Shown: positions 6,309 through 42,563 of the stretch, piece after piece
Position numbering within the stretch: the first letter of the stretch is position 1
How the letters are laid out: each line of letters starts with the position of its first letter
NCBI GenBank assembly: GCA_021814005.1
Contig: JAKAJC010000004.1
Coordinates: 230 to 64,229 of the forward strand
Direction: 5' to 3'
Source: Candidatus Micrarchaeota archaeon
GTDB taxonomy: Archaea > Micrarchaeota > Micrarchaeia > Anstonellales > Anstonellaceae
DNA length: 64,000 nucleotides
Made by a program: the position numbers and the translations under genes
The notes under the pieces: generated by a model
Told to the model about the DNA's origin: nothing
The model's input: only the letters and a program-made list of their open reading frames with translations
Database searches by the model: none

Positions 6309-6353
6309 AGTCACCTTTTACAAAAATTATCTAATTTCATCAGAATAATTCAA

Positions 6354-7082
6354 TCAAACTTGGGGCTGATTCGGATTCTGCGGCGCTCTTGCCGAGCGGG
6401 GCGAATAATCTGAATCAGCCGCCTCGTCTCCCTGTCCGCCCGATGAGTGCACCGGAGCTGCCGGCGCTTTGGGCATTGCTTTGCCGCCCTTCTCCCTCAA
6501 GAGCGCGGCCACGCGGTCTGTCAATCCAGTGGTGTGGGCCTGCGCCTCCACCATGCGAATCGCCTCGACCGCCAACGCATGATTGCCGCCGAATGAAACA
6601 AACACATAGCCGTTGCGCCCGACTATCACCTGACAGCCGGTCATCTGCGCGATTGTGTTAATCATGGAATTCCGCTTGCCGATAAGGCGCGGCACCTTGA
6701 CTGGGGAAATGCGCTCAAGCCAGCCGCCCTCCAATGGGCGCGCGTCGGCCAAATCAATCGACTTCACTTCGTCGACGTTGATTACCCTTGCCTGCACCAT
6801 GCTGCCGAGGCGGAAAGTGGCCCTCGAATCTCGGCTGGACAAAAAGCCGGAGAACGGCTCGCCCAGCTCGACATTGTAGCCTGTGAAGCGGATGTCTGTG
6901 ACATAACCGACCACAATATCCTCGACAAGGGGCTCGTAAGGCCCTTCAAGGGGCACAAGGTGGCCGTCATCGCTCAAAAGGCTGAGCGCGGTCGCATATG
7001 TCTTGTGGCCGTCTGAAAAAGTGTAGGCCATGCGCTGGGGCTGGTCTGAAACGACTTCGCCTGGAACGACGATTTTGGACAT
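6354..7082 (-). CDS. rrp4: Exosome complex RNA-binding protein Rrp4 (S1 + KH domains)
   Basis: MSKIVVPGEVV... has S1-like then KH-like sequence and sits upstream of rrp41. Start moved from 7112 to ATG 7082, which is preceded by AGGAGGG. Confidence 0.88.
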   Translation of the reverse strand: MSKIVVPGEVVSDQPQRMAYTFSDGHKTYATALSLLSDDGHLVPLEGPYEPLVEDIVVGYVTDIRFTGYNVELGEPFSGFLSSRDSRATFRLGSMVQARVINVDEVKSIDLADARPLEGGWLERISPVKVPRLIGKRNSMINTIAQMTGCQVIVGRNGYVFVSFGGNHALAVEAIRMVEAQAHTTGLTDRVAALLREKGGKAMPKAPAAPVHSSGGQGDEAADSDYSPRSARAPQNPNQPQV

Positions 7083-7258
7083 AAGAATATCCCTCCTAAA
7101 TGCTTGGCCCAAACAGGGGCCATGGAACTACTAATCAGGTTCCGTTTTTGTTTCGAGTGTACGAGAGATAGTGGGGGCCCTATCTATAATAATATATATG
7201 GTTGGGCGGGCCCGCGAAAGCAGCCGGTTTGGCTCAAGCGGCCGGTTTGGCCAAATAT

Positions 7259-7969
7259 CTATTTTCCGGCATCCAGCATCTTGGTCTGGTTGTCGCCCGA
7301 TGTGGCCTTGTTCAGTTTGTCCAAAAATTCTCCAACCATGCCGGCCGGAATGGTGATGACGCCCATCAGACTTCCGTCCGAGCCCCATTCCTCGCGCTCC
7401 ATGTGCTGGCTTTTGAGCAAACCGAATGCGCGGTGCGCGTGAATTGCAGGAACCTTGATTGCAATGCGCTTTTTCTCCATCTTGATAGGCAGCTCAAGGC
7501 GCAATGCGGAAATGACTTTGTCCATTTGCGCGGCCGCATCCTGCATGGGGTCGATGTCAAGGCGCACCTTGTCCATGGACGCCTCTATGCGTGCAAGAGG
7601 ATGGGGCGCGCCCGTGCGCGGGTCTGTCGCCTCGCGCGCAATGAGCTGTGCAATCTGCTTTCTTTTCTGCTCCATCATCTTGTGCTTCTGGTCGGTGGTG
7701 AGGGCCAGCTCGCCGTCCTTGAGAATTTTCTCGGCAATAACGAAAACGTCCTGAGTGTGAAACGCTTTCTGCAATTCAGCCGCCTTGGCCCGCTCAGATG
7801 CCTTGGCGTCTGTGAAAATTTCCTCTACAACAAGAACATTGTTCAATTCTTTTTTCTGGCCCAAGCGATAGGCAAGTCCTGCGTCGGGGTCAACGTAGAT
7901 TTCGAACAGCTTGCCCTCTATCTTCATGTGCGCGATGATTGCCTTGTCAAGTGAAACCATGTTTATCAC
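7259..7969 (-). CDS. sdo1: SBDS (Shwachman-Bodian-Diamond) family ribosome maturation protein
   Basis: KLFEIYVDPD...ELNNVLVVEEIFTDA motif; conserved superoperon member. GTG 7969 overlaps the upstream stop (GTGA); ATG 7960 is the alternative start. Confidence 0.88.
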   Translation of the reverse strand: MINMVSLDKAIIAHMKIEGKLFEIYVDPDAGLAYRLGQKKELNNVLVVEEIFTDAKASERAKAAELQKAFHTQDVFVIAEKILKDGELALTTDQKHKMMEQKRKQIAQLIAREATDPRTGAPHPLARIEASMDKVRLDIDPMQDAAAQMDKVISALRLELPIKMEKKRIAIKVPAIHAHRAFGLLKSQHMEREEWGSDGSLMGVITIPAGMVGEFLDKLNKATSGDNQTKMLDAGK

Positions 7970-8745
7970 GACACAATCGAATTTTCGCCGGCATCAACCA
8001 CGTTCGTGGTCGGCAGCACGAATTCATCGTCCCAATAAACCGGGGCCACATATACAATCGCTTCCTGCACGATGCCGTTCCCTCTGTCGAATGACAGCAG
8101 GGCCCCGTCTTTGGGGTTATAGCAGTAGGTGCCTGAATTGACCGTGAATTTTGTCTCAAAGCATTCGGTCTGGATTGTGCCCCATTTTTTGGATTCCACT
8201 TTCTGCACGCGAGTCATCGTCCGGTTTTTCAGTTCGCCCAGCAGTCCGTTGTCCGGGCTGTAGAGCACAGACCGCGGCTTGGACTGGTTGTAGCACACCC
8301 ATTCCCCCTCGCGCGCGCCGGCCGAGGTTGTCCCGCTGTCATCGCAAAGATAGTAAGCCGGCCCGTTGAGGGCGTAATAGCGGAAGGTGCCGTCGCTGGC
8401 GCGCCATTGGCTTTTTCCGTCGTATGAACGGTTGACGTATCCCATAACCTCTGTGCCGTTCCAAATGATTTTGTATTCGGCATGCCACGAATGATTGGTC
8501 TCCAGTTCAAGAAGGCGCATCATCTCGTTTCTCGCGTCGCCTGCCGCCGCGGGTGCGGGAGTTCCATTTTGCGGAAGAGCCGCGCCGGCCGAGTTGTTAG
8601 GTTTCACCGCGCCGACCGTATTTTTGTCTTCAACCGGGCCCGAGCCGCCCGCCGCAGGCTGCTGATTTTGCGCCTGGGTGCAGCCGATGAAAATAAAACC
8701 GACGAAAATAAGAGAAATTAAAAAAAGAAATTTCAGCATGTTCAA
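7966..8745 (-). CDS. Hypothetical secreted/lipobox protein (259 aa)
   Basis: N-terminus MNMLKFLFLISLIFVGFIFIGC has a signal peptide ending in Cys, followed by a Gln/Pro/Ala/Gly-rich linker. It is wedged between psmA and SBDS with a 4-nt overlap to the SBDS start. Confidence 0.7.
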   Translation of the reverse strand: MNMLKFLFLISLIFVGFIFIGCTQAQNQQPAAGGSGPVEDKNTVGAVKPNNSAGAALPQNGTPAPAAAGDARNEMMRLLELETNHSWHAEYKIIWNGTEVMGYVNRSYDGKSQWRASDGTFRYYALNGPAYYLCDDSGTTSAGAREGEWVCYNQSKPRSVLYSPDNGLLGELKNRTMTRVQKVESKKWGTIQTECFETKFTVNSGTYCYNPKDGALLSFDRGNGIVQEAIVYVAPVYWDDEFVLPTTNVVDAGENSIVS

Positions 8746-8753
8746 TCACTCAC

Positions 8754-9464
8754 TCAAGCCTTGAGGTGCTTCTCAATCTCCTTTGTCGAGAGCACTTCAA
8801 ACACCTTGGTCTTGCTCGGGCAGATGGCGATTTCGACGTTCTGCGCCTCCAGCTTCAAATCGCCGGATTTGCGCAGCGCCTTGAGAGCGAGCGAGATGCC
8901 GGCGTCGAGGGTGAGGGATTCCTTGTATTCTTTTTCAAAGAACTCCTCAACCTCTTTGCGGCCCGAGCCGATGGCGCAGGCCTTGTAGCCTGTGAGAGCG
9001 CCCGAGGGTTCTGCCTCGTAGAGGCGCGGCTTGTCGTCAACGCCTGCCACAAGCAGTGTAACCCCGAAGGGTCTTACGCCGCCGTATTGAGTATATACCT
9101 GCATCAAATCGCACATCTCTTTTGCCATTGCCTCCAGACTCATGCTTTCGGCATAGGCCATGCGGTGGCGCTGCGCCTCGAGGCGCGCGATGTCCACCAA
9201 ACGGCGCGCGTCGGCAATCAGGCCGGACGCGGTGGTTGCGATGTGAGTGTCAATCTCAAACACCTTCTTCATCGACTCGGGCACAAGCAGGCCGGAGCCG
9301 GCGTTTTTGTAGGCAACAAGCGCCACTCCGTCGGCGCACACTATTCCGATTGCGGTTGCGCCGCGCCTCACCGCCTCTTTGGCGTATTCCACCTGAAACA
9401 GGCGGCCGTCTGGCGAGAAAACCGTGCTGGCGCGGTCATATGCTTGGGGCGATACGGGGTACAT
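8754..9464 (-). CDS. psmA: Proteasome subunit alpha
   Basis: YDRASTVFSPDGRLFQVEYAKEAV is the canonical alpha-subunit N-terminus. Start set to ATG 9464 (MYPVSP...), preceded by GAGGTG with 5-nt spacing. Confidence 0.92.
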   Translation of the reverse strand: MYPVSPQAYDRASTVFSPDGRLFQVEYAKEAVRRGATAIGIVCADGVALVAYKNAGSGLLVPESMKKVFEIDTHIATTASGLIADARRLVDIARLEAQRHRMAYAESMSLEAMAKEMCDLMQVYTQYGGVRPFGVTLLVAGVDDKPRLYEAEPSGALTGYKACAIGSGRKEVEEFFEKEYKESLTLDAGISLALKALRKSGDLKLEAQNVEIAICPSKTKVFEVLSTKEIEKHLKA

Positions 9465-9504
9465 GAAGACACCTCGAAGATAATGCACTGCATAACCGAA
9501 GAAG

Positions 9505-21428: not shown

Positions 21429-22718
21429 ATGGCGCGAGCTCAAAAAACAAAAACAAAAAATGAAAAAGAAAACGGCTGCTCCCGTTTCGCGAGCATTGGC
21501 TTCGCGCGCGCCAGCCCTGCGCGCGCCAGCCCCGCGTTTTCTTCGGCGCGCTCGAGCGCGCTGCGGCATTTTGTTTTCTTGTTTATTACGGCCTCTCTGT
21601 TCCTTATCCCATCAATTCACGCGGCCGCCGCATGGCAGCCGGCAGTTTTCGCAGCCGTGCTCATCTCCGTCTCCGTGCTGGCAGTCGTTTACATGATTGT
21701 AACCGTGCTGAAATGGGACAGGTTCAAGGGCATCATAAAAGACGAGCTCGGCCAGACGTTCATCACATTTCTTCTGGTGGTCCTGCTTGTTGCAGGCATG
21801 TCCGAAGGCGAAACCCAAGCGTCGAAACTTGTGTGCGGCATTTCCGGCATGCCAGACTCCGGCTTCTGCCCGACTCCCGCGCGCGACACCATGATTTTCT
21901 GCAAAACTGCCGGAAGCAATCCCACCACATGCCCCATCACCGGCAGCCAGCCGCTCAACAACTGGGCCCTCTCGCTCAACACCAACGCGCAGTCTCTCCT
22001 GAGCACCAACCTGCTCGCCAAGGCGCTGGAGTTCAACCAAAAACTCGGCTATGTGAGCTCGGTGTCGGGCTTCTGCAACATGCTTGGCGTGGGCTTCTCC
22101 ATCGCCGGCTGCTCCACTTACGGCGTGCTGCGCGGACCCGTCGGCCAGCTGCTCAACGCAATCGGCATCGGATTGATGGATTTGCAGGCAGAGCGGATTC
22201 TGCTCCAGCTCAACACTGCCGGTTTCACGCTGAGCCTGCTTTTGCCGCTTGGCATCCTGCTCCGCGCGCTGCACTGGACCAGAAAGGCGGGCGGCACGCT
22301 CATCGCCCTCGCACTCTCGCTCTACTTCATTTTCCCCGCGTCGCTTTTGCTTGGGCAGGCGATGGCAGACCAGTTCATCAAGACGGGCAGCCCGTATCAG
22401 GCCCTCGCAGCCGGCCCGACGTTTCCGGCAATGAGCGGCAGCTACAATCCGCTCGACACATCTACCGTCGAATGCAATCCATTTGACCCAAGCACCGGCA
22501 AGATGGTCAACACCATGAACAGCTTCCTCACGCGCAGTCCTTCCGACCCCGCGAACGTCAAGAATCCATCCACCATCGACCAGATTCTTTTCGTTGTGAT
22601 GATACGCAACCTGATGATAACCATCGTGGCGCTCACAGTCACCCTCTCCGCCACGCGCGTGCTGGGCCACGCCCTTGGCGCGGAAATCGACGTGTGGGGC
22701 ATTGCGAGGCTGAGCTAA
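21429..22718 (+). CDS. Operon gene 6: 429-aa polytopic membrane protein, paralog family member
   Basis: The track ORF (21093..) overlaps gene 5. The ATG at 21429 lies 5 nt after the gene 5 stop, with AGGTG upstream. Carries AVVYMIVT...IIKDEL, LRALHWTRKAGGTLIALALSLYFIFP and the C-terminal ALGAEIDVWGIARLS. Confidence 0.85.
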   Translation: MARAQKTKTKNEKENGCSRFASIGFARASPARASPAFSSARSSALRHFVFLFITASLFLIPSIHAAAAWQPAVFAAVLISVSVLAVVYMIVTVLKWDRFKGIIKDELGQTFITFLLVVLLVAGMSEGETQASKLVCGISGMPDSGFCPTPARDTMIFCKTAGSNPTTCPITGSQPLNNWALSLNTNAQSLLSTNLLAKALEFNQKLGYVSSVSGFCNMLGVGFSIAGCSTYGVLRGPVGQLLNAIGIGLMDLQAERILLQLNTAGFTLSLLLPLGILLRALHWTRKAGGTLIALALSLYFIFPASLLLGQAMADQFIKTGSPYQALAAGPTFPAMSGSYNPLDTSTVECNPFDPSTGKMVNTMNSFLTRSPSDPANVKNPSTIDQILFVVMIRNLMITIVALTVTLSATRVLGHALGAEIDVWGIARLS

Positions 22719-25700
22719 ATGGAGAAAAAGAACCGGCCGCATTCACCGAAGTTCTCATCGCCATCGCCCATGCCGCACCTTGCGCTGTTATTTCTCTTGG
22801 CCGCAGTTCTGCTCGCTCCATTTGTTTCGGCAGACATAACCGCAACAATTGATTACAACAGCGCCCCTCCCCCGCCCGCCTCGCCCTGGCTCACCATAAC
22901 TCCGATGACTGTGGGCGTGAGCGCCGACTGCGGCACCATACCGCCCTGCGTGCCGCCGTTCAGAATCAATTTCCAGTTCGTCTGCGGCGGCACCCCTGTG
23001 CAGGAAACATTCACAAACGTCCCGCCGGCCTCCCGAACAGCATACACCTATTATCCAAACTCCGACCCCGCATGCCGCGAGCCGACGCCGCTGAATTCCA
23101 TAATCACAATCACCGACACTACTGGACAATCATTTTTCACGCAAAGTTTCCCCGTAGCTCTGGCAAATGGTACAGACACCACTCCGCCGGGCATCTCGTG
23201 GAATCCCGTGCCGCCGCCAGAATATGATGCGGGCGCAACCATCAGCTTCGGCTTCACAGTCACCGACCCTGACGACAACACCAACGCGATTCCGACATTG
23301 TATCCAAATGTCGCCACGGCCGAGGTGGAAATCACCGACTTGGGAAACGGCCAGGTCTATGGGCCATATGACATGGGCCCGTTCCCTCCACCGAACGGCT
23401 GGAGCACCCAAGTCTTTCATATAGAAGGCACCCCCAGCGCCGACCACACTGTTGAAATCAACTGCAGCCGCCTCAACTGCGTCGGAGATTTGCAAATAAA
23501 AGTCAGGTCCCACGACCCTGCGGGCCTTGGCATTACCCTGCCGCCAATGATTGTGCGCAGGCGCGGCGGCCTGGTTCTTCCCTCTCCCATATTGGGCATC
23601 ATCCCGCCCGCACCCGTCTGCCCCAACGCGGCCATCCGCGCCATGGCAAACCAGCCGTCTGGCTCCCCTGCAATAGACAGCCATGAATACAGCTGGTCCA
23701 TCACTCCAAATCCTCCGGTGCAGATAGATACTGTGCCCGACACCGCCAAAACGGGCGCCACTTCAGACACATTCGACTGCGCGGCGCGCAACTGCCAGAA
23801 CGGCCAGACCGTGTCAGTAAGCGTGCTCGCCATCGCCGGCGCCCAGCGCTCCCCTCCCAACGCCACCCTGATTCTCGTCGACGGCAGCAGCCTTGACTGC
23901 AGAATGCCGGCAGCCCCGCTTCTCACCAACCAGACAATATCCATCTCGCCCTTCAACGCGATAGTGCTGGCAAACCAGAGCAACAACGATCCGCGAGCCG
24001 TGCTCCACCGCTATGTCTGGACCATGGCCGACGGCACAGTCATCGAATCCCCGCTCATGCCCCTGCCAATCCAAAATGTCACATCAGCTCCCGTGCCCTG
24101 CGCCGCGAATCCAAACCTCTACTGCCCGTCGGGAGGAACCGTCCTTCTCACGGTCTATTCATACACTGCGCAGAATGTGCAATCCCAGCCAGCATTTATC
24201 TCCATCTTAATTCCGGCGCGCTCAGCCCTCAATCCGCCGGTGGTTGTCACCAAGCCCTTCAGCCCGTATGACAACGACACCATCGTGCTTGTTGCAAACA
24301 ACCAGAACGAAGAGGTGGACCGGCACCAGTACCGCCTGCTCATCATCAATGCGGACGGCACTATATACCAAGAAATCGATGCTCCAATCTACGACACTGT
24401 TTCCACAACCGCGGCAGACAAACACACCACCACATCCAAGCCATTCACCTGCACGACAAGCGTATGCAGGGGCCGCTTTGCCAACATAACCGCCCGCGCC
24501 TACAATTCCCTTGGCTGGTCAGACTGGTCTCCCTGGCTGAGCGTCCCATTCGGCCCGCCGCCGATTCCTGCGCCAATACTTGTGCGCATCGACCCGATTC
24601 CACCCGGCAATTCGATGCTGTCAGACATCAATTCCGGACTTGGCGCGCTCCTCAACACCTCGCTTGCCTACAGCTTCACAATAACCCCGCCCGCCGGCCA
24701 GCCGCCGTTCAACGACTATATTCCAACCCTCACAGTCAACGGCGCAGACGCGCCGGTTTCATCCAGCCGCTCGGGCAACAATCTCATCATCACTCTGGCC
24801 TGCACCCCGTCATCATGTCCGAACGGCTCAATCCTCACATACAAGGTAATCGGCGTGCAGGCGGGAGCGAATTCCACTCCCCTGTATTTCTCGCTTGTAG
24901 TTCCGCAGGCGAGCGGCATGCCCGCGCAGGTGGGCGTCATCTGTTCCGGCGCCGAACTGCAAAGATGGCTGCAGGTGATGGCCATCGGCATGATGGCCCT
25001 TCTCGCCCTTATCGCGCTCGTCTATATGATTGGCGAGGCGCTGCACCACCCGCAGCTTTTGGAATGGTCCAAATCAGAAATCGGGCACGTGGGCATGACC
25101 ATCATCCTCTTCTTCCTCATCGTATGGCTGATTCAGTTCCAGTGCAACCTGACGGTGGGCGAATTCCTCAACTGGTCTGGCTCGTCAAACCCCCTCTACT
25201 CGTCAGGCATGACGCTTTCACAGGCAGGTCTCAAATCGCTTGAATGGGGCATCACCCAGACGCGGCTCACCCTCGTGGCCATGCGCTACGAGATGGGAGT
25301 GCTCAACATGCGGGCCACCTATTCCTCCTACTCCACCCAGTTCCCCGGAATGGGCGGCAACGGCTACAGCTTCATGCCCTTCTCGGGCGATTACACCCTG
25401 CTCGGCTCGTTCGGCATGCTCACCAACCTCAACTCCACTTTCCTGCTCGCGCTCCTCTTCCAGCTATTCTCGCTGTTCTTCTTTTCCTCTTCCAGCGGGC
25501 TGTTCATATTCCTCGTGCCGGTCGGCCTCATACTGCGCTCGGTTCCGTTCATACGCGGATTCGGCGGCTCGCTGGTGGCCATCGGCATCGGCTTCTACAT
25601 ATTCTATCCGATTCTGCTTGCCTTCACCGGCCTTCTGCTCGCGCCGCTCTACTCGGGCATTGACTCCACCAGCCAGCTCGGCATCGCCGACGCCTCGCAG

Positions 25701-32065: not shown

Positions 32066-32740
32066 TTATTCTCTGCGCCTGTCTTTTACCGGCTCTTCCT
32101 TTTCGCCTTTCTCAAGCCGAAGCAAAAACGTGGAGCGCAAAAGCGGCTTGCCGTTTTTCTCGCCGACCAGCTTTTCTGTTCGCACGAATTTGTAGCCCTC
32201 GAGGCGGATGATGTTTTCCACATCCTTTTTTTCGCCGACCTGAATGTCCATGCCGCCGTGCATGGGTGCAACATCCTGCAAAAACGTCCTGCGCTCGAGG
32301 CGGCGCACCAGCCTCTTTCTCGCGCTCTCCACACGCACCGGGTCTCCGCGAATCTGAATTATTGCCTCATGATAGCTGCTTCCAATGCGGCCGCAGTTGG
32401 GGCACATATGCTCCGTGTACTTGACTGTAAATGGATGCGTATATGCAATTTTCGCCCCCTCCTCGTTGAATATGCCCTCCCACTGCTGCGCCTCTATATT
32501 GTAATGGCCATTCAGCCCCTTTTTCTCGAACTGGTGAGACACCAAATCCGAAACCAGCTGCGCGTCGGGGTGTTTCCACTCCCTGTCCCGATAAACGCGC
32601 TTGCAGGTGGGGCACTGCTTGAGCTCAAGGCCGCTCGGCCAGTCCTTGCGGCTGCGGTCAAGCGTGCATTCCACGCACAGCTCGCCAACAAAAGGCCTCT
32701 CGTTGGATGACTTGCCGCAGACTGGGCATATTCTTTCCAT
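32066..32740 (-). CDS. nmd3: NMD3 family (60S subunit export/maturation adaptor homolog)
   Basis: N-terminal CPVCG...CVEC...CPTC zinc clusters plus a later CPNCG, with the overall NMD3-like pattern, in 224 aa. Confidence 0.8.
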   Translation of the reverse strand: MERICPVCGKSSNERPFVGELCVECTLDRSRKDWPSGLELKQCPTCKRVYRDREWKHPDAQLVSDLVSHQFEKKGLNGHYNIEAQQWEGIFNEEGAKIAYTHPFTVKYTEHMCPNCGRIGSSYHEAIIQIRGDPVRVESARKRLVRRLERRTFLQDVAPMHGGMDIQVGEKKDVENIIRLEGYKFVRTEKLVGEKNGKPLLRSTFLLRLEKGEKEEPVKDRRRE

Positions 32741-33107: not shown

Positions 33108-34910
33108 ATGGAATCAGCCAAGACGGCGCTGGGGCTCACCCGCTATTTCGTGGCCCTGCCGCCCGCCAAGCACATGCTCGCCTTTCTCCTTCTCTCCACG
33201 CTCATAGGCGGCGCGCTGCTTGACTGGGCCCGCTCCGGCCGCCTTGACGGCGTTTCTCTTATGAGCGGCGCGGGCAGCGCGCTTATCACCATCGCCATTC
33301 CCTCCCTCATTGCCGCGGGCGCATTGGCGGTTTTGCGCAGGCGCGTAACCCCGCAGCGCGCCTTGGCGGTCGGCCTGATTTCAGGGCTGACCTATCTGTT
33401 CTTTTTCATCTGTGCCGCCGCCCTGAGCCACTTCTATCTTCCGGCATCCAACCTTGTCTTTGTGGGTTTTGGCGTCGCATTTCTTCTCTGGCTCACGGTT
33501 CTCAAATACGCGTTCGGCCTCACCCGCTCGGCATGGCTGTTTGCCATCGCCCAGCTTTTGGGCTACACTTTCTTCATGCTGGCCGGCTCCTCGCTCTATC
33601 TGGAGGCCCCCACCGACACCCTGATGCGCGTGGTGCTTGCAGCATCCGTGTTCGTGGCCGCCCTTTATGCAGTGCTCTCATTTGCCTCCGGCCCCCTCAA
33701 GCGCAATCTCGGGCTCAAATCAGGCGACATATTGTCAGGCTTTTCCAGCCAGTGGCTTTTTGGTGAAAACGATTTGGAGGAGGCGTTTGACGAAATCGGC
33801 GAAAACGTGCAAACCTATGTTGGCATGGCCGAGTGGCGCACAAAGCACGGCAATCTGCGGTGGGTGGTGCCCTATGTCCACTTCGGCCCGTTCGGCTCAT
33901 TGGGCGGCAGCCACTTTTCCTACAAAATGGCCGAGGCCCTCTCAAACCAGCGCACAATGGCAATGGTGTTTCACGGCACCTGCACCCACGACTTTGACCC
34001 GGTTTCATCCAAGCAAATCAACGCACTTCTGGCGGCCTGCCAGACCATGAGTTCAAAATTCTCTTTCAAACCCGCGCGCTTCACATACAAAGAGGGCAGT
34101 GCCGGCGCCAGCCGCTGCTACTTTCTGGCTGTAAACAATTCCGCCCTGCCAAGCTTTTCGCGCGCGCCACTTTCCACAGAAGACGTGAATTTCGGAGTGG
34201 GCCTTGCGCTTATGGCAAGGGCCGAAACAGCATATTCAAACGCCCTTGTCTTCGACTGCCACAATGCCGAGACGGGAGATTTGGATTATATCGAGCCCGG
34301 CTCGGCCGAGTCGTTTGAAATGATTGACTCTTTGGAGCACGCATTGTCGAGCATGGCCAAAAATACAAAATCCTCCCCAATGTGCGCAGGCTGGTCTGCA
34401 TCAGATGCAGAAGGCATAGGCGGCATCGGAGACGGCGGAATAAAGGTGAGCTGCTTTGCGCCCGCAGGCCGCGCAGACGAATCCCTTTTCTACATCCTCA
34501 TCGACTCCAACGGCATCACCGCCGGCGCGCGCGACCGGCTTATCGGCGCTGTGCGCACCTATTACCCGCGCTCATCGTTTATCGAAGTGCTCACAACCGA
34601 CACCCACCAGCTCAATTCAGTGCGCGGCGTGTTCAACCCCGCAGGCGCGACAGACGAGGCCGCGCTTGAGAAAATGGCGGTGCAATTGTGCGCGCAGGCG
34701 CACGGCCGCCTCTCGCCCGCCACATTCGCAATGGCAAAGCAGAGGGTAGAGGTGAAAGTGCTAGGGCCTTATCAGTCAGCCGAAATAGTCGCAACCCTAA
34801 ATTCGGTTGTCGCGGTGCTCAAATTCGCCCTGCCAATAATATTTTTGGCAGCCATCGCGCTGGTGCTGTTCATACTCGGCAAAATTCCGGGAAGCACGAT
34901 AGCATTATAA
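33108..34910 (+). CDS. Polytopic membrane protein (600 aa) with a large soluble C-terminal domain and a terminal TM; possibly DUF2070-like
   Basis: The N-terminal ~200 aa has several hydrophobic helices, a ~350-aa soluble region follows, and there is a final TM (LPIIFLAAIALVLFILG). The size and architecture resemble archaeal DUF2070, but this is unverified. Confidence 0.7.
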   Translation: MESAKTALGLTRYFVALPPAKHMLAFLLLSTLIGGALLDWARSGRLDGVSLMSGAGSALITIAIPSLIAAGALAVLRRRVTPQRALAVGLISGLTYLFFFICAAALSHFYLPASNLVFVGFGVAFLLWLTVLKYAFGLTRSAWLFAIAQLLGYTFFMLAGSSLYLEAPTDTLMRVVLAASVFVAALYAVLSFASGPLKRNLGLKSGDILSGFSSQWLFGENDLEEAFDEIGENVQTYVGMAEWRTKHGNLRWVVPYVHFGPFGSLGGSHFSYKMAEALSNQRTMAMVFHGTCTHDFDPVSSKQINALLAACQTMSSKFSFKPARFTYKEGSAGASRCYFLAVNNSALPSFSRAPLSTEDVNFGVGLALMARAETAYSNALVFDCHNAETGDLDYIEPGSAESFEMIDSLEHALSSMAKNTKSSPMCAGWSASDAEGIGGIGDGGIKVSCFAPAGRADESLFYILIDSNGITAGARDRLIGAVRTYYPRSSFIEVLTTDTHQLNSVRGVFNPAGATDEAALEKMAVQLCAQAHGRLSPATFAMAKQRVEVKVLGPYQSAEIVATLNSVVAVLKFALPIIFLAAIALVLFILGKIPGSTIAL

Positions 34911-36311: not shown

Positions 36312-36392
36312 CTATTTTTTTGCTGTTTTGCTGTTGCCTATTTTTGCTATTCTGTTACTGCCTATTGTTCGCTGTTCTGCTTTGCCTGCTTC
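36312..36392. repeat. Adenine-poor T/G/C low-complexity tract with degenerate GCTGTT / TGCCTATT repeats
   Basis: Sequence is ttttttgctgttttgctgttgcctatttttgctattctgttactgcctattgttcgctgttctgctttgcctgctt, in a divergent intergenic region. It generates the artefactual N-terminus MLFCCCLFLLFCYC of track ORF 36320. Confidence 0.6.
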
Positions 36393-36487
36393 AATTCGGG
36401 CATAAAAGAATATATACCCCAATCAGGGCACGGGGAGCGCATAAGCCAATCCATCTCCCTTTTATTCCTCCATGCCTTTATTTTTTT

Positions 36488-37924
36488 GTGGGAAACCCGT
36501 TTGATTTCGACGACACGTCGAGCGTAAAAGTGCCGTCCACTTTGCTCGAGCAGGTAATCGGGCAGGAGGAAGCCGTGCGCCTTGCCCGCGTCATCGCAAA
36601 GCAGCGCCGCCATCTTCTGCTGGTAGGCCCGCCCGGCACAGGCAAATCCATGGTGGCGCAGGCCATCTCCTCTATCTTGCCCAGGCCGACTCAGGAAGTT
36701 TCCGTGCTTCACAATCCTGCCAAACCAGAGCGCCCATTCCTAGAAGTACGCACCCGCCCCCAAATCGAGGAGCAGGTCCGCGGCAGGCCTCCCGCAGGCC
36801 TTCTAATGCCAATCGAGCAGGCGCCCCCCTTTGTGACCGAGCGCCTCGGCTACCGCTGCCACGCATGCAGCCGCAACTCATCTCCAGACGCGCCTCTCTG
36901 CCCGCATTGCGGCGCCGAGAAATTCCGCGGCGGCGCGGGCCCGTTCGATGATTTGGTTGTGGGCCTTGGCGCGCCCGAGCGCGAGGAATCTGTTTCCACC
37001 ACCCGCATAATGGGCGGCAAGGAAGAGCTTGTGGTGTTCGAGCGCTTTGACGACCGCTGCGTGCGCGCGCTTGACCAGAAAGAGCTTTCCAAGCTCGACC
37101 ATTCCGACACGCAGCTGCCGCGCAACATTCTTCTCAATCTTGAGCGCCCCTGCTTTGTGCAGGCGACAGGCGCGTCAGAAACAGAGCTTCTGGGCGATGT
37201 GCGCCACGACCCGTACGGAGGGCATTACCAAATCGGCACTCCGCCCTATTCGCGCGTGGTGGCTGGAGGCGTGCACGAGGCGCACGAGGGTGTGCTGTTT
37301 ATCGACGAGCTGGTCTCTCTGGGACGGCTGCAGCGCCACCTTCTCACCGCAATGCAGGAGCGAAAATTCCCAATCACCGGGCGCAACGCATCCTCAACCG
37401 GCGCGTCTGTGCGCGTGGATTCAGTGCCGTGCGAATTCATTCTTGTCGCGGCAGTAAACACATCCGACTTGCGCAAAATCCTGCCACCACTGCGCTCGCG
37501 CATAGGCGGCAACGGCTACGAGCTGCTCATCAACACCACCATGCCCGACACCGAGGCAAACGTGCAGAAGCTGGCCCAGTTCGCGGCTCAGGAAGTGCGG
37601 CGCGACGGCCGCATTCCGCACGCAAGCCGCGCGGCCGTGGAGGCGCTGGTGGGCGAGGCGCGCCGCCGCGCCAAATCTGTTGACCACGCGGCCGGCCTCA
37701 CGCTGCGCCTTCGCTCTTTGTCAGGCATTCTCAAAATGGCCGGAGACTGGGCGGTGTCAGACACTGCCCCGCTTATCGAGGAAAAGCATGTGAAGCTGGC
37801 GATTGAGCGCGGCAAGCCTGTTGAAGAGCAGATTATGGGCCGCTACGGCAGCGCATACAAGGCCGCCATGTCGGACTGGGGGCTTTCAAACCGCGTGCCC
37901 ACTGATGACAAAAACATCGGCTAG
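36488..37924 (+). CDS. LonB-like AAA+ ATPase lacking the protease domain and the TM insert, with a zinc ribbon between Walker A and Walker B
   Basis: VPSTLLEQVIGQEEAV...LLLVGPPGTGKS (Walker A), ETELLGDVRHDPYGG, GVLFIDE (Walker B), VPCEFILVAAVN and LTLRLRSLSGILKMAGDWA all match the archaeal LonB ATPase pattern. The ORF stops ~35 aa after the alpha-domain. Start assumed at in-frame GTG 36488 and is uncertain. Confidence 0.75.
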   Translation: MGNPFDFDDTSSVKVPSTLLEQVIGQEEAVRLARVIAKQRRHLLLVGPPGTGKSMVAQAISSILPRPTQEVSVLHNPAKPERPFLEVRTRPQIEEQVRGRPPAGLLMPIEQAPPFVTERLGYRCHACSRNSSPDAPLCPHCGAEKFRGGAGPFDDLVVGLGAPEREESVSTTRIMGGKEELVVFERFDDRCVRALDQKELSKLDHSDTQLPRNILLNLERPCFVQATGASETELLGDVRHDPYGGHYQIGTPPYSRVVAGGVHEAHEGVLFIDELVSLGRLQRHLLTAMQERKFPITGRNASSTGASVRVDSVPCEFILVAAVNTSDLRKILPPLRSRIGGNGYELLINTTMPDTEANVQKLAQFAAQEVRRDGRIPHASRAAVEALVGEARRRAKSVDHAAGLTLRLRSLSGILKMAGDWAVSDTAPLIEEKHVKLAIERGKPVEEQIMGRYGSAYKAAMSDWGLSNRVPTDDKNIG

Positions 37925-37947: not shown

Positions 37948-38769
37948 CTAATTAGCCGCCTTTTTCATGCGCCCGGCCCAGGCAGTCTCGCGGGCGCGCT
38001 CTTCTCCGTAAATGTATATGTCCTCGAGCATTTTTTCGCCAGTTTTCACCCATTTCAAAAACGCGCGCTGCTCAGCCCCGTCCATGTACATCGCAGTCTT
38101 GTGCATTATTCCGGTCATGAAATAAATCAGTTCGGCCGCTTTCGGCTCTGGCGCATCAGGATTGTTTTTGAAATACCGCTGGCGGGAAATGGCATCTTCC
38201 AAATCATTGAACCGATAGACAAACCACTCAACCGAAATTGCGAACGCTATGGATTTCACCAGCGCAACCTGCTCCGCGCTCGCCTCTTTTCTCGGACCCG
38301 CTTCGGCGAAAAAGGCCTGATTCTCCTCAGGTGTTCTCTTCATGGCCCGCATGACTGAAGGGCCCCAAAGCACGAGATTCATATATGCCTCGAAGGGGCT
38401 TCCGCGCTTGTGATACAACACCTGAGGCGAGTCGGACAGCGCGCCAAGCCATTGCTTCATGGGGCCGGTGATTGATTCCGGCGCCTGCCCCTCAAACGGC
38501 TTTATTTCTTTAATCAATTCAAACCACTGGCTGGCTGCGGCGCCAAATTCGCGGATTTGCTGCATCCGATATTCTGAAACCGCTATGCCCATTTTTGATT
38601 TGTCTATCTCCGGCGCCAGCCGTTCTATCTTATGGCGTCCCCTGCGGTTGAGGCGAATCGGCACAATCTCCGGCGTCAGCCGTTCAATCTTATGGAGTCC
38701 ACTGCGGTTGAGGCGAATCGACGCAATGTCAAGCTTGCCGCTCGGCGTGGAGTTTATCGCTTTTCGCAT
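37948..38769 (-). CDS. Hypothetical protein (273 aa) with an N-terminal duplicated 20-aa motif
   Basis: Start moved from 39084 to ATG 38769, since the upstream part overlaps the herA-like start and promoter. ATTAAAAA lies 24-31 nt upstream. No family recognised. Confidence 0.65.
   Translation of the reverse strand: MRKAINSTPSGKLDIASIRLNRSGLHKIERLTPEIVPIRLNRRGRHKIERLAPEIDKSKMGIAVSEYRMQQIREFGAAASQWFELIKEIKPFEGQAPESITGPMKQWLGALSDSPQVLYHKRGSPFEAYMNLVLWGPSVMRAMKRTPEENQAFFAEAGPRKEASAEQVALVKSIAFAISVEWFVYRFNDLEDAISRQRYFKNNPDAPEPKAAELIYFMTGIMHKTAMYMDGAEQRAFLKWVKTGEKMLEDIYIYGEERARETAWAGRMKKAAN
38606..38725. repeat. Two tandem 60-bp units (~90% identical), in frame within CDS 37948..38769
   Basis: Unit 1 (38606-38665) and unit 2 (38666-38725) align with ~6 mismatches. 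They encode IRLNRxGxHKIERLxPEI twice. Confidence 0.85.
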
Positions 38770-38809
38770 GTTGTTTACTATGGTTTTTGTTGTTTTTAAT
38801 AGCAGAGGG

Positions 38810-38834
38810 GCGGAAAAGCGCCTCCCATCTCTTT
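38810..38834. repeat. 25-nt direct repeat, copy 1 (GCGGAAAAGCGCCTCCCATCTCTTT)
   Basis: Perfect copy of 38911-38935. Lies 10 nt from the minus-strand TATA (38793-38800). Confidence 0.85.
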
Positions 38835-38843
38835 CCGAACCGC

Positions 38844-38867
38844 GGAGGGGGGCTTTGGCCCCCCTCC
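38844..38867. other. GC-rich perfect hairpin (10-bp stem, 4-nt loop) centred between the two 25-nt repeats
   Basis: GGAGGGGGGC-TTTG-GCCCCCCTCC. Confidence 0.8.
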
Positions 38868-38910
38868 CCAGTTTGAGGTTCTTCCTGACCCTCCCCCCAC
38901 GAATATTTGA

Positions 38911-38935
38911 GCGGAAAAGCGCCTCCCATCTCTTT
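38911..38935. repeat. 25-nt direct repeat, copy 2, abutting the herA-like TATA
   Basis: Perfect copy of 38810-38834. Its 3' end merges into CTTTTTATTG (38932-38941), 21-30 nt upstream of ATG 38962. Confidence 0.85.
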
Positions 38936-38961
38936 TTATTGTTCACGACGTAAAGCGAGAC

Positions 38962-40506
38962 ATGGTTTCCGGCCCAACCACCTCCCCTCTTCCCGCTTCC
39001 GCGCTGGGCACTGTCATCTCCACTTTCGAGGGCACCCCCAACACGGCCGAATTTCATTTTGTCATCCAGTCGGGCGACGTGCACAAGGGCCAGTTCGTGC
39101 AGGTTGTCACCCCTTCCGGCCCTGTCCTTGGCTCGATAACCGAAATCTCGCGCGCCAACCGCTATTTCGAGCGCGCCGAATCTGTTGCAGAATACGAGCG
39201 CCTTGGCGTGCTATCATCGCAGTTCCCCACAACCGAATGGGAATACATGGTTGCGGTGGTGCGGGTGCAGGGCGTGCTCAACGGCGCGCACATGGGCCGC
39301 TGCTCCATCCCCGTCGCCCCCGGCGCGGCCGTTTCGGCAGCAACAGAGGAGCAGCTCAAATCTTTTCTTGGGTTTGACGATTCGGGCCTTCATGTGGGCA
39401 CAGTGGCCTATCATACGCTGCCAGTGCGCCTTGGTTTGGGCCGCCTTTTGCAAAAGCATCTGGCAATTCTGGCCATGTCTGGCGCAGGCAAATCCTATCT
39501 TGCCTCTGTTCTAATCGAGGAGCTGCTTGACCGGCCGGCAGCCAGCGGCCGCCTGGCCGTTGTTGCGCTTGACCAGCACGGAGAATATGTTGGCTTCAAA
39601 GATTCAATTTACCGCGACCGCGTCACCGTGGTGCCGGGCAAGAAAATCCGCATCGGCCTTCGCCATCTCTCAGCCTCCCATCTGGCCGAATGGTCTGAAA
39701 TGTCATCCACCGCGCGCCGCGCTCTTGACAAGCATGTGGCTGCCCTCAAGGCCGAGATAAAAGAAAAGCAGGAGCCGGTTGGCCTCTCCGAATTGATTGA
39801 GCGCGTGCGCGACGATGCCGACCTCAACAAAAAGGAAAATGTGCGCGGCCCCCTTCTTGCCGCGCTCGAAGAGCTTGAGCATCTGCACCTCATAGGCACA
39901 ACCGACACCCTCAAACTTTCCGAGCTGATAAAGCCCGGACATCTCATAGTGCTCGACCTTTCCGACATTGACGATTTGCGCAAAAAGCAGATGATTGTCG
40001 CATACTACGGCCGCAAACTGTTCCGCCAGCGCAAGAAAGGCCTTATCCCGCCCTATGTCATGCTGGTGGAAGAGGCGCACAATTTTGCGCGCGAAAAGGC
40101 CGAGCGGCGCAACGCGCTTTCAAAATCCATGATTGAAACCATTGCGCGCGAGGGAAGAAAATTCGGCGCAAGTCTTTGTCTCATCACCCAGCGCCCCGTC
40201 CAATTGTCCACAACCGCCCTCTCGCAATGCAATTCCAACATCATTTTGCGTGTAACAAATCCGTTCGACCTCAAGCACATCGGCGAATCATGCGAGGGCA
40301 TCGACTCGCACATGCTTGACTCCATCACCTCATTGCGCGTGGGCGAGGCCCTTGTGGTGGGCGAGGCCGTGGGCGCGCCCATCTTTGTCAAGGTGAGGCA
40401 GCGCAAAAGCAAAGTTGTGGCGCGCGGCGAGTCTTTGGAAAAGCTGGCAAAAGAATTTGAGGAAAAAGACAAAAGAAAAGAGGACGAGATTGAGGCATTT
40501 CTCTAA
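38962..40506 (+). CDS. HerA-like ATPase (DUF87/COG0433, FtsK-HerA superfamily)
   Basis: N-terminal barrel pattern (GTVISTFEGTPNTAEFHFVI...GQFVQVV), Walker A LAMSGAGKSY, Walker B HLIVLDLSD and VMLVEEAHNF, in 514 aa. Confidence 0.85.
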   Translation: MVSGPTTSPLPASALGTVISTFEGTPNTAEFHFVIQSGDVHKGQFVQVVTPSGPVLGSITEISRANRYFERAESVAEYERLGVLSSQFPTTEWEYMVAVVRVQGVLNGAHMGRCSIPVAPGAAVSAATEEQLKSFLGFDDSGLHVGTVAYHTLPVRLGLGRLLQKHLAILAMSGAGKSYLASVLIEELLDRPAASGRLAVVALDQHGEYVGFKDSIYRDRVTVVPGKKIRIGLRHLSASHLAEWSEMSSTARRALDKHVAALKAEIKEKQEPVGLSELIERVRDDADLNKKENVRGPLLAALEELEHLHLIGTTDTLKLSELIKPGHLIVLDLSDIDDLRKKQMIVAYYGRKLFRQRKKGLIPPYVMLVEEAHNFAREKAERRNALSKSMIETIAREGRKFGASLCLITQRPVQLSTTALSQCNSNIILRVTNPFDLKHIGESCEGIDSHMLDSITSLRVGEALVVGEAVGAPIFVKVRQRKSKVVARGESLEKLAKEFEEKDKRKEDEIEAFL

Positions 40507-41030
40507 GCCTTCTTTGACTTCCTGCCTCTTGCCGCCATTTCCTTTCTCTCTTTTTTGATATAATCATCCAAAAGCGCGTTTTCGGCCAGAGCGTAGAACT
40601 CTGTTTTTATGTTTTTCAGCATATGGCGCGCCTGGTCGTAAAATCCGGCGTCTCTCAGACCGGTGGAAATGTCAATCCACACGAAGTCGCGGTCGTACAC
40701 CGACATGGCGTCAGTTTCAACAACTTTTTGCGCCTGCAATATGGCATCCTCGAAAGTGTGGCTTGCCACCTTCCACATCCCGTGTTTGGCCTCCTCCACG
40801 GCGCACGACACCTTGTCTTTTATGTTAAAGGTGGCGAGCATGCCAAACTCGTTCAGTATGGCCTTTTTGTTGCGGTTGTGCCAGTAGATGTTGAAAACAT
40901 TGCGTTTTATCTGCGCCGGTATTTTTTTTATCTGGTTGAATTTTTCCGGCCTGCGCCAGTCTGGAAAAGGAGAAGGTTTCAATTCGGGGTTCGGGGCCAA
41001 TGTCTGTATCCTCAGTCCCTCCATATACAA
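40503..41030 (-). CDS. Hypothetical protein (175 aa)
   Basis: ORF convergent with the herA-like gene, with stops overlapping by 4 nt. GC is visibly lower. No family recognised. Confidence 0.55.
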   Translation of the reverse strand: MYMEGLRIQTLAPNPELKPSPFPDWRRPEKFNQIKKIPAQIKRNVFNIYWHNRNKKAILNEFGMLATFNIKDKVSCAVEEAKHGMWKVASHTFEDAILQAQKVVETDAMSVYDRDFVWIDISTGLRDAGFYDQARHMLKNIKTEFYALAENALLDDYIKKERKEMAARGRKSKKA

Positions 41031-41113
41031 TCAATACGCGTGGGAAAAGAATAAAAATCGGTGTTTTCGTCAATTCCCAAACCGATAAAACACAAGGCTG
41101 TGAGAACTTCATC

Positions 41114-42013
41114 ATGCGCAAAATCAACGCCGTGGCCAATCTTCCGCTGCAGTTGCGAAACTTCTGGCACGGCAAAATAGGCAATCAGCAGATGCAGTTC
41201 CACCTCTATACTGCCTCCGCGCGCGCCGCATTGCGAACCGAAGTAGAAAAAGCAGTAGAAAAATACGAAAATTCGGGCAATATGCTTTCCGCAGACAGGC
41301 TTTCGCGCTACTGGGAATATTTGTCTGCCTACATTGCGGCGCAAAACGAGAATAGCGGCGGCAAACCTGTCAGGCCCTCCTTCGATCTCTCGTCTTTTCT
41401 GCGCCTTCTTTACGCCGGCAAAAAACCTGCAAAATTCTGGCATGATTTTTCGCACACTTACAATTTGCGTGCGCCAATCGGCGGAATGTTCTGGGATTAT
41501 TTTGAGGAATTTCAAATCAGGCGGCTGGACATTGCCAATTGGCTTGCCGAAAATTCAAAAGGAAAAATCCTTGACATCGGTGCGGGCGCACATTCCTATA
41601 TTCCGGTCGATACGGCAGCCGACATTTCGAAAACTGCGCTGGCCGAAAATAAAAACGCAAAAAGAAAAATCGTGATAAATCCGCTGGACGAAATGACGGC
41701 CAATAACTGGCCGTTTGCGCGCCATTCGTTTGACACCGTCATGCTCAATTCAATTCTTTCTTATGTGAAAAATCACAAGCGTCTGCTGGCACTTATCCGC
41801 TCAACTCTGCGAAATGGCGGGGTTCTTCTCATCACAAATGCGCCGATTCTGCCGCACCATCCTGCCGCATTTTTTGTCAAAAAAGAAGTAAGCGCAAAAT
41901 CTCTTGCCCGTTCCCTCCATCAGGCAGGATTTGAGTTTGAAAACCACTCGCGCGGCGAAATTCTTCTAATCAAATCCACGCCACGCTCCACGCGCCGGCA
42001 TAAGCCAGCATGA
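41114..42013 (+). CDS. Class I SAM-dependent methyltransferase (299 aa)
   Basis: Motif I KILDIGAGAHSY, a later DTVMLNSILSYV and GGVLLITNAP. Start moved to ATG 41114. Confidence 0.7.
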   Translation: MRKINAVANLPLQLRNFWHGKIGNQQMQFHLYTASARAALRTEVEKAVEKYENSGNMLSADRLSRYWEYLSAYIAAQNENSGGKPVRPSFDLSSFLRLLYAGKKPAKFWHDFSHTYNLRAPIGGMFWDYFEEFQIRRLDIANWLAENSKGKILDIGAGAHSYIPVDTAADISKTALAENKNAKRKIVINPLDEMTANNWPFARHSFDTVMLNSILSYVKNHKRLLALIRSTLRNGGVLLITNAPILPHHPAAFFVKKEVSAKSLARSLHQAGFEFENHSRGEILLIKSTPRSTRRHKPA

Positions 42014-42563
42014 TGAAGCGCACTATTCTTCCTGCAATGCACCAGAAAAGAAATTCATACCATTTCATCCCCATCAGGCCTGCCGCAATTCCTGCAAAAT
42101 CAAAGAACGGATTGGGCAGGGCCGAGAGAAGAAACACGCCCGCCCCCGCCCATCGCGTGAGAATTGATGACTGCAGTTTCAAAAGCCACTTCAAAGTTTT
42201 GTCTTTTGTTTTGAGAAGATGGGTGGAGCCCTGTCCGATGAAAAATCCTGACAATTCTCCAATGCCCGAGCCTATGCCTGCAACCAAACCGAGCAGAAGC
42301 GGGTCAAGCGTGCGGCCAAGGCCGACAATTGCAAATTGCAGCGGCCCTGCAGGCACGAAAACCGTTGCAGATGCAAGAAACGCGATAAGAAATGCGCCAA
42401 AATAGGAGTATCTGCCCAAGATGCGGGCCAGATGGGGCGCGGCAAGCCAGATAATGGCCGAAACCAGCAGCATTGCGGCTATTTCAAAAAGCCCGATGCG
42501 AAATTCCTTTCCTGACTTGGCGCGAGAGGCAATATTTGTTTTTTTCCCTCTGTTCTTGCCCAT
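41970..42563 (-). CDS. DedA/VTT-domain membrane protein (YqaA-like)
   Basis: Polytopic 197-aa protein with YFGAFLIAFLASATVFVPAGP and ALPNPFFDFAGIAAG motifs typical of YqaA/DedA. Confidence 0.65.
   Translation of the reverse strand: MGKNRGKKTNIASRAKSGKEFRIGLFEIAAMLLVSAIIWLAAPHLARILGRYSYFGAFLIAFLASATVFVPAGPLQFAIVGLGRTLDPLLLGLVAGIGSGIGELSGFFIGQGSTHLLKTKDKTLKWLLKLQSSILTRWAGAGVFLLSALPNPFFDFAGIAAGLMGMKWYEFLFWCIAGRIVRFIMLAYAGAWSVAWI

Follow-up and report, generated by a model that had tools for sequence, protein, structure and literature searches.

What does an archaeal cell do with a gene that carries the motor of the membrane protease LonB and ends before the protease begins? The question is raised by a gene at 36488-37924 (+ strand) in a 64,000-nucleotide stretch of DNA from a Candidatus Micrarchaeota archaeon (assembly GCA_021814005.1, contig JAKAJC010000004.1, positions 230 to 64,229; the whole stretch is called the window below). 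Lon proteases are defined by a motor and a protease in one chain, and this gene belongs to a family of archaeal proteins that has kept the motor only. A reading made earlier from the letters alone (the sequence-only reading) had described the product as a soluble, protease-less Lon-type ATPase with a zinc ribbon at the position of the LonB membrane insert. Domain searches, hydropathy analysis and the comparison of 164 homologous loci agree with that description. We conclude that the gene is a complete, soluble LonB relative that is natively protease-less. As to function, a soluble, ring-forming, ATP-driven protein unfoldase or remodeller is the reading we prefer, and we regard the case for it as evenly balanced.

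The relationship to LonB was established with profile, structure and fold searches. Against the NCBIfam model of LonB (TIGR00764) the window protein scored 348 bits (E=1.1e-103), which is below the curated cut-off of 516.6 bits, and the best stretch covered profile positions 170-406 of 608, the ATPase module only. The top match in the PDB was the LonB of Thermococcus onnurineus, TonLonB (3k1j; E=2.6e-86), to which residues 6-89 and 209-453 of the query were aligned. Residues 90-208 remained unaligned, and they occupy the exact site at which LonB carries its membrane-anchoring insert within the ATPase module (PMC9569914, PMC4864567). A Pfam scan returned AAA+ fragments and LonB_AAA-LID (residues 378-441, 22.6 bits versus a cut-off of 22.4), and no match to the Lon_C protease domain. 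The extent of the TIGR00764 match and the missing Lon_C match thus confine the LonB relationship to the ATPase module. When a full-length AF2 model was submitted to Foldseek, TonLonB came first (E=1e-27), followed by LonC, RuvB and RuvBL.

No other ATPase family claimed the protein. The comparison with LonB, LonC and BrxL models that the sequence-only reading had suggested placed it below the LonB cut-off, at 37 bits on the LonC model (TIGR02903, cut-off 678.8) and with no match to BrxL; the model of bacterial LonB-type proteins gave 33.6 bits (TIGR02902, cut-off 723.3) and YifB gave 51.6 bits (cut-off 362). Matches to the Mg-chelatase, YifB-ComM, MCM and sigma-54 activator groups were only local, around Walker A (residues 20-70) or Walker B (residues 259-310). 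In NCBIfam, no model reached its curated cut-off on the window protein.

The features of the gene and its immediate flank are the following.

36488-37924, + strand: coding sequence of the protease-less LonB-like AAA+ ATPase, 478 amino acids, GTG start, TAG stop at 37922-37924.
36317-36387, no strand: tandem repeat, 24 nucleotides × 3, intergenic, 5' of the ATPase gene and outside the protein.
36626-36649, + strand: Walker A, GPPGTGKS, residues 47-54; G47, P49, G50, G52, K53 and S54 are invariant in an alignment of 40 sequences.
36755-37111, + strand: family-specific soluble insert, residues ~90-208, in place of the LonB membrane-anchoring insert.
36857-36910, + strand: four-cysteine zinc ribbon, CHAC-x10-CPHC, residues 124-141; C124, C127, C138 and C141 are invariant.
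Residues 231-245: motif ETELLGDVRHDPYGG.
37193-37270, + strand: equivalent of the long LonB pore loop-1, GDVRHDPYGG...AGG, residues 236-261, near-identical to TonLonB.
37289-37309, + strand: Walker B, GVLFIDE, residues 268-274; D273 and E274 are invariant.
37373-37429, + strand: equivalent of the LonB RKH loop, ITGRNASSTGASVRVDSVP, residues 296-314, aligned with ITGQSEMSSGAMVRTEPVP of TonLonB.
Residues 313-324: motif VPCEFILVAAVN.
37442-37510, + strand: sensor-1 (N324) and arginine-finger region LRSRIGG (R336/R338); N324 and R338 are invariant, R336 is conserved in at least 90%.
37697-37717, + strand: sensor-2 region LTLRLRS (R407/R409) of the lid domain; L406, R407, L408 and R409 are invariant.
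Residues 404-422: motif LTLRLRSLSGILKMAGDWA.
Residues 434-442: HVKLAIERG, followed by 36 residues and the stop.
37871-37921, + strand: C-terminal tail ...DDKNIG, of the Micrarchaeota type x-[E/N/D]-[V/I/T]-x, without a penultimate aromatic residue.

Pore loop-1 and the RKH loop are used here as defined for LonB (PMC9569914). The motifs quoted by the sequence-only reading were all present at the places it gave. In 40 diverse family members K53, D273/E274, N324, R338 and R407/R409 are invariant, as are the four cysteines of the insert; the core of pore loop-1 (G236, D237, H240, D241, P242, Y243 and G244, reading GD-x-x-HDPYG) is invariant as well.

What is missing is equally definite. The S16 Ser-Lys protease domain of LonB is absent, only 36 residues being left beyond the lid helix motif HVKLAIERG, where the first estimate had been about 35. 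Nor was any transmembrane helix found in the window protein: the highest hydropathy over 19 residues is 1.31, whereas the same scan of six canonical LonBs gave maxima of 1.9-2.7 in their inserts. Because three defining features of LonB fail, the protein should not be filed as a Lon protease.

The membrane anchor is replaced by a soluble domain. The stretch without a LonB counterpart measures ~120 residues (90-208), so the earlier figure of ~190 for the soluble insert was only approximate; the distance from the Walker A lysine to the Walker B aspartate is 220 residues. The spacing of the cysteine pairs was likewise given as x11, and is x10. The insert is modelled confidently (predicted local distance difference test score, pLDDT, 82). 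No Pfam model covers it at cut-off, the nearest being Zn_ribbon_3 (E=0.006, below cut-off). The CxxC...CxxC pattern is present in 117 of 120 close homologues, and also in every distant member checked, those of Korarchaeota and Thorarchaeota included. Each of the three exceptions loses one CxxC pair, in two cases through an apparent one-residue gap, and these may be sequencing errors. The zinc-ribbon segment always carries a net positive charge (+1 to +7, mean +4.3). A search with a profile of the insert only, which was apparently incomplete, gave 16 fragments of the same family and no other architecture.

The 5' end of the gene required some attention, since the sequence-only reading had considered the start unclear on account of a repeat tract upstream. 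The tract exists, and it is intergenic. The long open frame runs from 36320 to 37924 (+), and the GTG at 36488 aligns with the N-terminus M-x-x-x-FDF-[DE]-DTS of 14 close homologues that were inspected. Because the N-termini of the homologues align there and the alignment with T. onnurineus LonB begins at residue 6, we place the gene start at 36488 from these alignments. The frame upstream of it (36320-36487) would encode a hydrophobic extension that has no equivalent in any homologue and that overlaps the tandem repeat. A TTTTATT at 36460-36466, ~25 nucleotides 5' of the GTG, was picked by eye as a candidate archaeal TATA box for a leaderless transcript. At the 3' end the next open reading frame (ORF) is convergent, as had been reported, and its stop lies 23 nucleotides beyond the TAG.

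The architecture is native to a family. The best 120 database homologues are 55-100% identical to the window protein, 448-530 residues long and almost all from Micrarchaeota; their database names are 'Archaeal Lon protease', 'peptidase' or 'ATP-binding protein'. When GTDB was scanned with one genome per species, 598 relatives came up, and the top 80 include proteins from Micrarchaeota and also from Thermoplasmata, Methanomassiliicoccales and DHVE2. Two sets of loci, 84 from genomes and 80 from a metagenome scan seeded with a Thorarchaeota sequence, were pooled to give 164, and all complete proteins at these loci stop 0-37 residues from the end of the ATPase profile. An exhaustive HMMER search divided the matches into two groups. 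The first consists of full-length, single-stretch matches of 440-511 residues, down to 34% identity, and includes Aciduliprofundum boonei ADD09201.1, one Korarchaeota metagenome-assembled genome (MAG) and Thorarchaeota MAGs. The second consists of two-stretch matches, mostly of ~585-1159 residues, canonical LonB among them. The family is thus found in Micrarchaeota (the phylum of the window), Thermoplasmatota, Korarchaeota and Thorarchaeota. Scored against a family profile built from the 40-sequence alignment, the window protein gave 817.7 bits over its whole length, insert included.

A neighbour-joining tree over 389 shared columns recovers the family as a monophyletic group in 99 of 100 bootstraps, with archaeal LonB as its sister. 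A hidden Markov model (HMM) made from the tails of canonical LonBs matched no family protein in either set of loci; its only two matches were to separate ORFs in L029 and L035, and it matched nothing in the metagenome set. Micrarchaeota and Anstonellales also possess canonical LonB with Lon_C (P0191, P0328, P0392 and P0439), from which it follows that, at the phylum level, the family is a paralogue of LonB and not a decayed LonB; the co-occurrence is shown for phylum and order only, since the assemblies looked up for the two genes did not coincide. The ATPase gene occurs once per locus examined and looks vertically conserved. We conclude that the protease-less lineage is conserved and apparently ancient. 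The sequence-only reading had allowed for a natively protease-less AAA+ clade that was already described: such a clade exists, and our full-text literature searches found no published description of the family, its zinc-ribbon insert, the dnaG linkage or the tail.

Two further observations were made on the wider group. By the neighbour-joining method, which is crude, Thermoplasmatota members are nested among Micrarchaeota members, with the Asgard and Korarchaeota members deeper; the nesting would be compatible with gene transfer between Micrarchaeota and Thermoplasmatota. Other LonB-like ATPases of ~630-650 residues also stop right after the lid and have no protease (P0145, P0149, P0152, P0155 and P0158). 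Their LonB-like match starts only at about residue 390-410; in the two that were scanned with Pfam (P0145 and P0152) the AAA+ module begins at about residue 230-250 behind an N-terminal extension, with HEAT repeats in P0152. It seems that LonB derivatives without a protease arose on more than one occasion.

The gene neighbourhood gives the main clue to partners. Clustering of neighbouring ORFs revealed a Toprim protein upstream of the ATPase gene in 36 of 84 loci, and the model NF003108 identified it as archaeal DnaG (455-550 bits, cut-off 300), an RNA-binding subunit of the exosome (PMC3672285, PMC4227792) that is also a primase of the Toprim type. Examples of dnaG upstream of the ATPase gene are at 8169-9572 in L048, 8693-9931 in L029, 8476-9807 in L003 and 4061-5293 in L084. 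In all 22 Thermoplasmatota-type loci with upstream sequence, dnaG lies directly upstream on the same strand, with anything from an overlap to a gap of 17 nucleotides. In an Asgard-like group of metagenome loci (L098-L111) it lies 78-732 nucleotides upstream wherever the sequence suffices, and a Thorarchaeota locus reads, in one direction, DnaG, a small OsmC gene, the ATPase and Pelota. Pelota, a ribosome-rescue factor, was seen directly 3' of the ATPase gene on the same strand in Thorarchaeota (L084 7516-8565; L085 1930-2979), and it adds an RNA and translation flavour to the neighbourhood.

The linkage goes together with the end of the protein. Outside Micrarchaeota the tails have a penultimate tyrosine or phenylalanine (GYQ, GYG, GYS, SYM, MFH, MFS, YFF; for example L048, L061, L099 and L118), which stays penultimate despite linkers of variable length. 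Since its position is kept in this way, the C-terminal carboxylate is probably the anchor of the motif, as it is for HbYX. In Micrarchaeota the ending is x-[E/N/D]-[V/I/T]-x. An aromatic penultimate residue was found in 88 sequences, and dnaG was adjacent at 63 of their 65 testable loci; for the 68 sequences with a non-aromatic tail, including the ...KNIG of the window, it was adjacent at 10 of 55. The pattern extends over at least three phyla, covering Thermoplasmatota, the Asgard-like group and some Micrarchaeota. The Micrarchaeota subgroup of the window has mostly lost both the dnaG adjacency and the aromatic tail, and the window gene is a derived member. A separate feature of the Thermoplasmatota members is a conserved Y-[YF]-W-N a few residues before the end of the tail.

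We propose the following mechanism. The protein shares an ancestor with the membrane protease LonB and has retained its ATP-hydrolysis site and substrate-gripping pore loops. It would form a hexameric ring that pulls polypeptides through a central pore at the expense of ATP; this is suggested by an intact ATPase site and by pore loops that differ from those of LonB in hardly any residue. The six zinc-ribbon domains of ~120 residues would surround the entrance of the pore like a crown and choose the substrates or partner proteins, a placement on the substrate-entry side that is predicted because the insert leaves the ATPase fold where the LonB anchor does, a pair of membrane helices on the entry face of the ring. 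With no protease of its own, the machine's output would be a remodelled or released protein, or else a hand-over to a separate machine. Because dnaG is coupled to the gene in the family, a functional tie to DnaG is suggested, and the aromatic tail suggests docking on a ring with HbYX-type pockets, of which the 20S proteasome is the known example. The ancestral job might then have concerned DnaG- or exosome-associated clients and their unfolding, possibly for proteasomal degradation. The Micrarchaeota form seen in the window has kept the motor and the zinc ribbon and lost the dnaG linkage and the aromatic tail. Since both partner clues are missing from it, we commit ourselves only to the unfoldase or remodeller core for the window protein; the partner of the family, DnaG with the exosome or the 20S proteasome, is inferred only.

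Several points weigh against this proposal. Hexamer formation and polypeptide translocation are taken from homology only, and the full-length model is mediocre (pLDDT 70.6) and poor over residues 205-267, the pore-loop region. Loci from related genomes are not independent, so that the counts given above overstate the number of independent events. No DnaG ORF is present in the 64-kb window, and the inferences about partners may not apply to the window protein, whose ...KNIG tail has no aromatic residue and is therefore not of the HbYX type; in the tails that do have one, the 'hydrophobic' position is often Gly or Ser, which is not canonical HbYX. Finally, the dnaG linkage and the net-positive zinc ribbon fit a nucleic-acid role equally well.

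Such a role is an alternative that we consider unlikely, and it is well defined. The ring would work with DnaG and translocate on RNA or single-stranded DNA as RuvB or MCM does, acting as a helicase of primosome type or providing the archaeal exosome with the unwinding motor that it lacks, and the zinc ribbon would supply the zinc-binding nucleic-acid module that is absent from archaeal DnaG. The position of dnaG, immediately upstream on the same strand and often overlapping or a few nucleotides away, agrees with this, as does the charge of the zinc ribbon; RuvB and RuvBL are among the structural neighbours, after Lon, and DnaG itself is an exosome-associated, RNA-binding protein (PMC3672285, PMC4227792). 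The pore loops, however, are of the Lon type. The sequence-only reading had offered an unfoldase or a nucleic-acid-associated factor, and this is still the right pair: the conserved pore loops favour the unfoldase, while the dnaG linkage leaves room for a connection with nucleic acids.

The aromatic tail could also mean that the ring docks on the alpha ring of the 20S proteasome and feeds unfolded proteins into it, as a LonB-derived functional analogue of PAN or Cdc48 acting mainly in lineages without PAN. Tails of the HbYX type dock ATPases on the 20S proteasome (PMC3493965, PMC11475706), Thermoplasmata and Korarchaeota have no PAN (PMC3493965), and an unfoldase without its own protease domain needs an outlet; a penultimate Tyr or Phe stands at the extreme C-terminus of 88 members behind linkers of variable length, and a 20S alpha subunit gene is present in the window (8754-9488). 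But the motif is often G-Y-x or S-Y-x and not hydrophobic-Y-x, the window protein and most Micrarchaeota members have no aromatic residue (x-E-[V/I]-x), and the gene is linked to dnaG and not to proteasome genes, so that docking of this kind is improbable as the family's function.

The two ideas can be combined into a third, so far unrecognised class of archaeal proteasome- or exosome-coupled unfoldase, a LonB derivative that would have abandoned its protease and its anchor and in which the zinc-ribbon crown and DnaG would recruit clients and the HbYX-like tail would dock on the 20S proteasome, the Micrarchaeota form having been rewired through a different docking tail. We regard this as a doubtful proposal. 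If true, it would physically link RNA decay with protein degradation, a link that Koonin and colleagues reportedly predicted from the exosome-proteasome superoperon.

The protease, and with it the membrane anchor, might instead be encoded apart. In this scheme, which we think very unlikely, the DUF2070 membrane protein or a stand-alone S16 protein would reassemble with the ATPase into a split Lon. A DUF2070 gene lies near the ATPase gene in the window, in 11 related loci and in L097, in several cases convergently with a gap of 0-11 nucleotides, and a protein with a Lon_C domain is encoded 1-2 kb downstream in L029 and L035. The DUF2070 linkage is limited to one closely related sub-lineage, though, and full-length LonB exists separately in the phylum. 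DUF2070 was rejected as the detached LonB anchor or protease, since hhalign gave a probability of <1% against either. The stand-alone S16 (Lon_C) proteins, ~600 residues long, come from two Micrarchaeota genomes (L029 12421-14232; L035 13669-15396), that is, from 2 of 164 loci. Inspection of the L029 sequence showed a signal or anchor at the N-terminus and a membrane helix at the C-terminus, which points to an extracytoplasmic Lon-type peptidase. Both S16 ORFs were rejected as nearby protease partners, as extracytoplasmic and irrelevant.

A defence ATPase, BrxL or another of Lon-like kind, is suggested by a HerA-like ATPase 1 kb downstream (PADLOC HerA, E=9e-45) and by the fact that BrxL is a Lon-like protein, but PADLOC gave no BrxL match and only short P-loop matches, the neighbours are housekeeping genes (DnaG, Pelota, NMD3), and the gene is single per locus and apparently vertical, which leaves this explanation highly improbable. 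That the gene is a LonB truncated by mis-assembly, frameshift or pseudogenisation could be thought from a stop that falls where the protease domain would start and from the convergent ORF 23 nucleotides on; we reject it as barely credible because complete proteins at 164 loci in at least four phyla share the same end point, the catalytic residues are all invariant, the clade is separate from LonB and the insert is wholly unlike that of LonB.

Comparison with known systems places the window protein as follows. It shares with archaeal LonB (TIGR00764; 3k1j/4zpx) an AAA+ module that is homologous throughout, with Walker A and B, pore loop-1, RKH loop, sensor-1, arginine finger, sensor-2 and lid, and the position of an insert between the two Walker motifs. 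It differs in having neither the S16 Ser-Lys protease nor membrane helices, in its unrelated soluble zinc-ribbon insert, and in standing below the family cut-off in a separate sister clade. In its presumed mode of action it resembles ClpX. ClpX is an AAA+ unfoldase without its own protease that docks on ClpP through IGF loops, and its N-terminal four-cysteine zinc-binding domain serves in substrate and adaptor recognition on the entry side. The zinc domain is N-terminal in ClpX and inserted in the window protein, with no detectable homology between the two, and ClpX was not among the matches of any search made.

As in PAN, Cdc48 (VAT) and AMA, whose HbYX tails depend chiefly on an aromatic residue at this place (PMC3493965, PMC11475706), most family members outside Micrarchaeota end with a penultimate Tyr or Phe; unlike them, the family is Lon-type and not classical AAA, its hydrophobic position is often Gly or Ser, and the window protein lacks the aromatic residue. 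LonC of Meiothermus taiwanensis (4fw9), the second-best structural neighbour, likewise belongs to the soluble relatives of Lon and has a large insert within its AAA-like module, and it has retained the protease and lost ATPase activity (PMC3391209), so that the protease-less family is the reverse of LonC. RuvBL1/RuvBL2 (TIP49), which were among the Foldseek matches, are AAA+ rings in which an inserted globular domain of considerable size separates Walker A from Walker B.

The window gene is one of many database homologues and not unique, and the interest lies at the level of the family more than in this gene. In the family a membrane anchor has been exchanged for a zinc-binding domain. Current database labels hide this, and in annotation the genes should not be counted as Lon proteases. 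The near-obligate dnaG linkage may shed light on the function of archaeal DnaG, which is unexplained, and the HbYX-like tail may be relevant to the way in which archaea without PAN serve their proteasomes. The member ADD09201.1 belongs to a cultured organism, Aciduliprofundum boonei, which makes experiments feasible.

The surroundings of the gene were also recorded. An exosome/proteasome cluster occupies 5526-9488 of the window (- strand), with an RNase PH subunit (5526-6314), a KH-domain Rrp4-like protein (6354-7112), an unassigned ORF of 259 residues (7966-8745) and the 20S proteasome alpha subunit (8754-9488; PF00227, E=7e-56). It is followed on the + strand by a 22-kb run of eight co-directional ORFs (9535-31864) of 1473, 312, 388, 350, 1409, 1090, 397 and 1554 residues, which is interrupted by a 376-residue ORF on the opposite strand (21612-22742). 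Neither the eight ORFs nor the interrupting one had any Pfam match. GC content is raised (~0.6) and GC skew strongly negative (-0.19) over 18-30 kb of the window. The run could encode giant surface proteins or be an integrated element.

Closer to the ATPase gene are an NMD3-like gene (32066-32740, -) and the DUF2070 membrane protein (33108-34910, +; E=2e-102). Both are found near the ATPase gene at 12 loci of the window's sub-lineage (for example L002, L007, L009, L010 and L014). In the Anstonellales loci L088 (3001-5569), L089 and L090 an NMD3-like gene overlaps the end of a canonical LonB gene; its presence beside LonB there and beside the protease-less paralogue here may be a coincidence or a remnant of old synteny. 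The convergent ORF downstream (37948-39084, -) encodes 378 residues with no family match and contains a near-duplicate unit of ~18 residues (IRLNRSGLHKIERLTPEI / IRLNRRGRHKIERLAPEI). In its called form the ORF shares 123 nucleotides with the start of the HerA-like gene, and because of this overlap the true start of the ORF probably lies further inside. Next to the HerA-like gene itself no NurA-like partner was recognised. At 38962-42563 the HerA-like ATPase (DUF87 and HAS barrel) is followed by a methyltransferase and then by a VTT-domain membrane protein, and the same trio occurs in the same order in L001.

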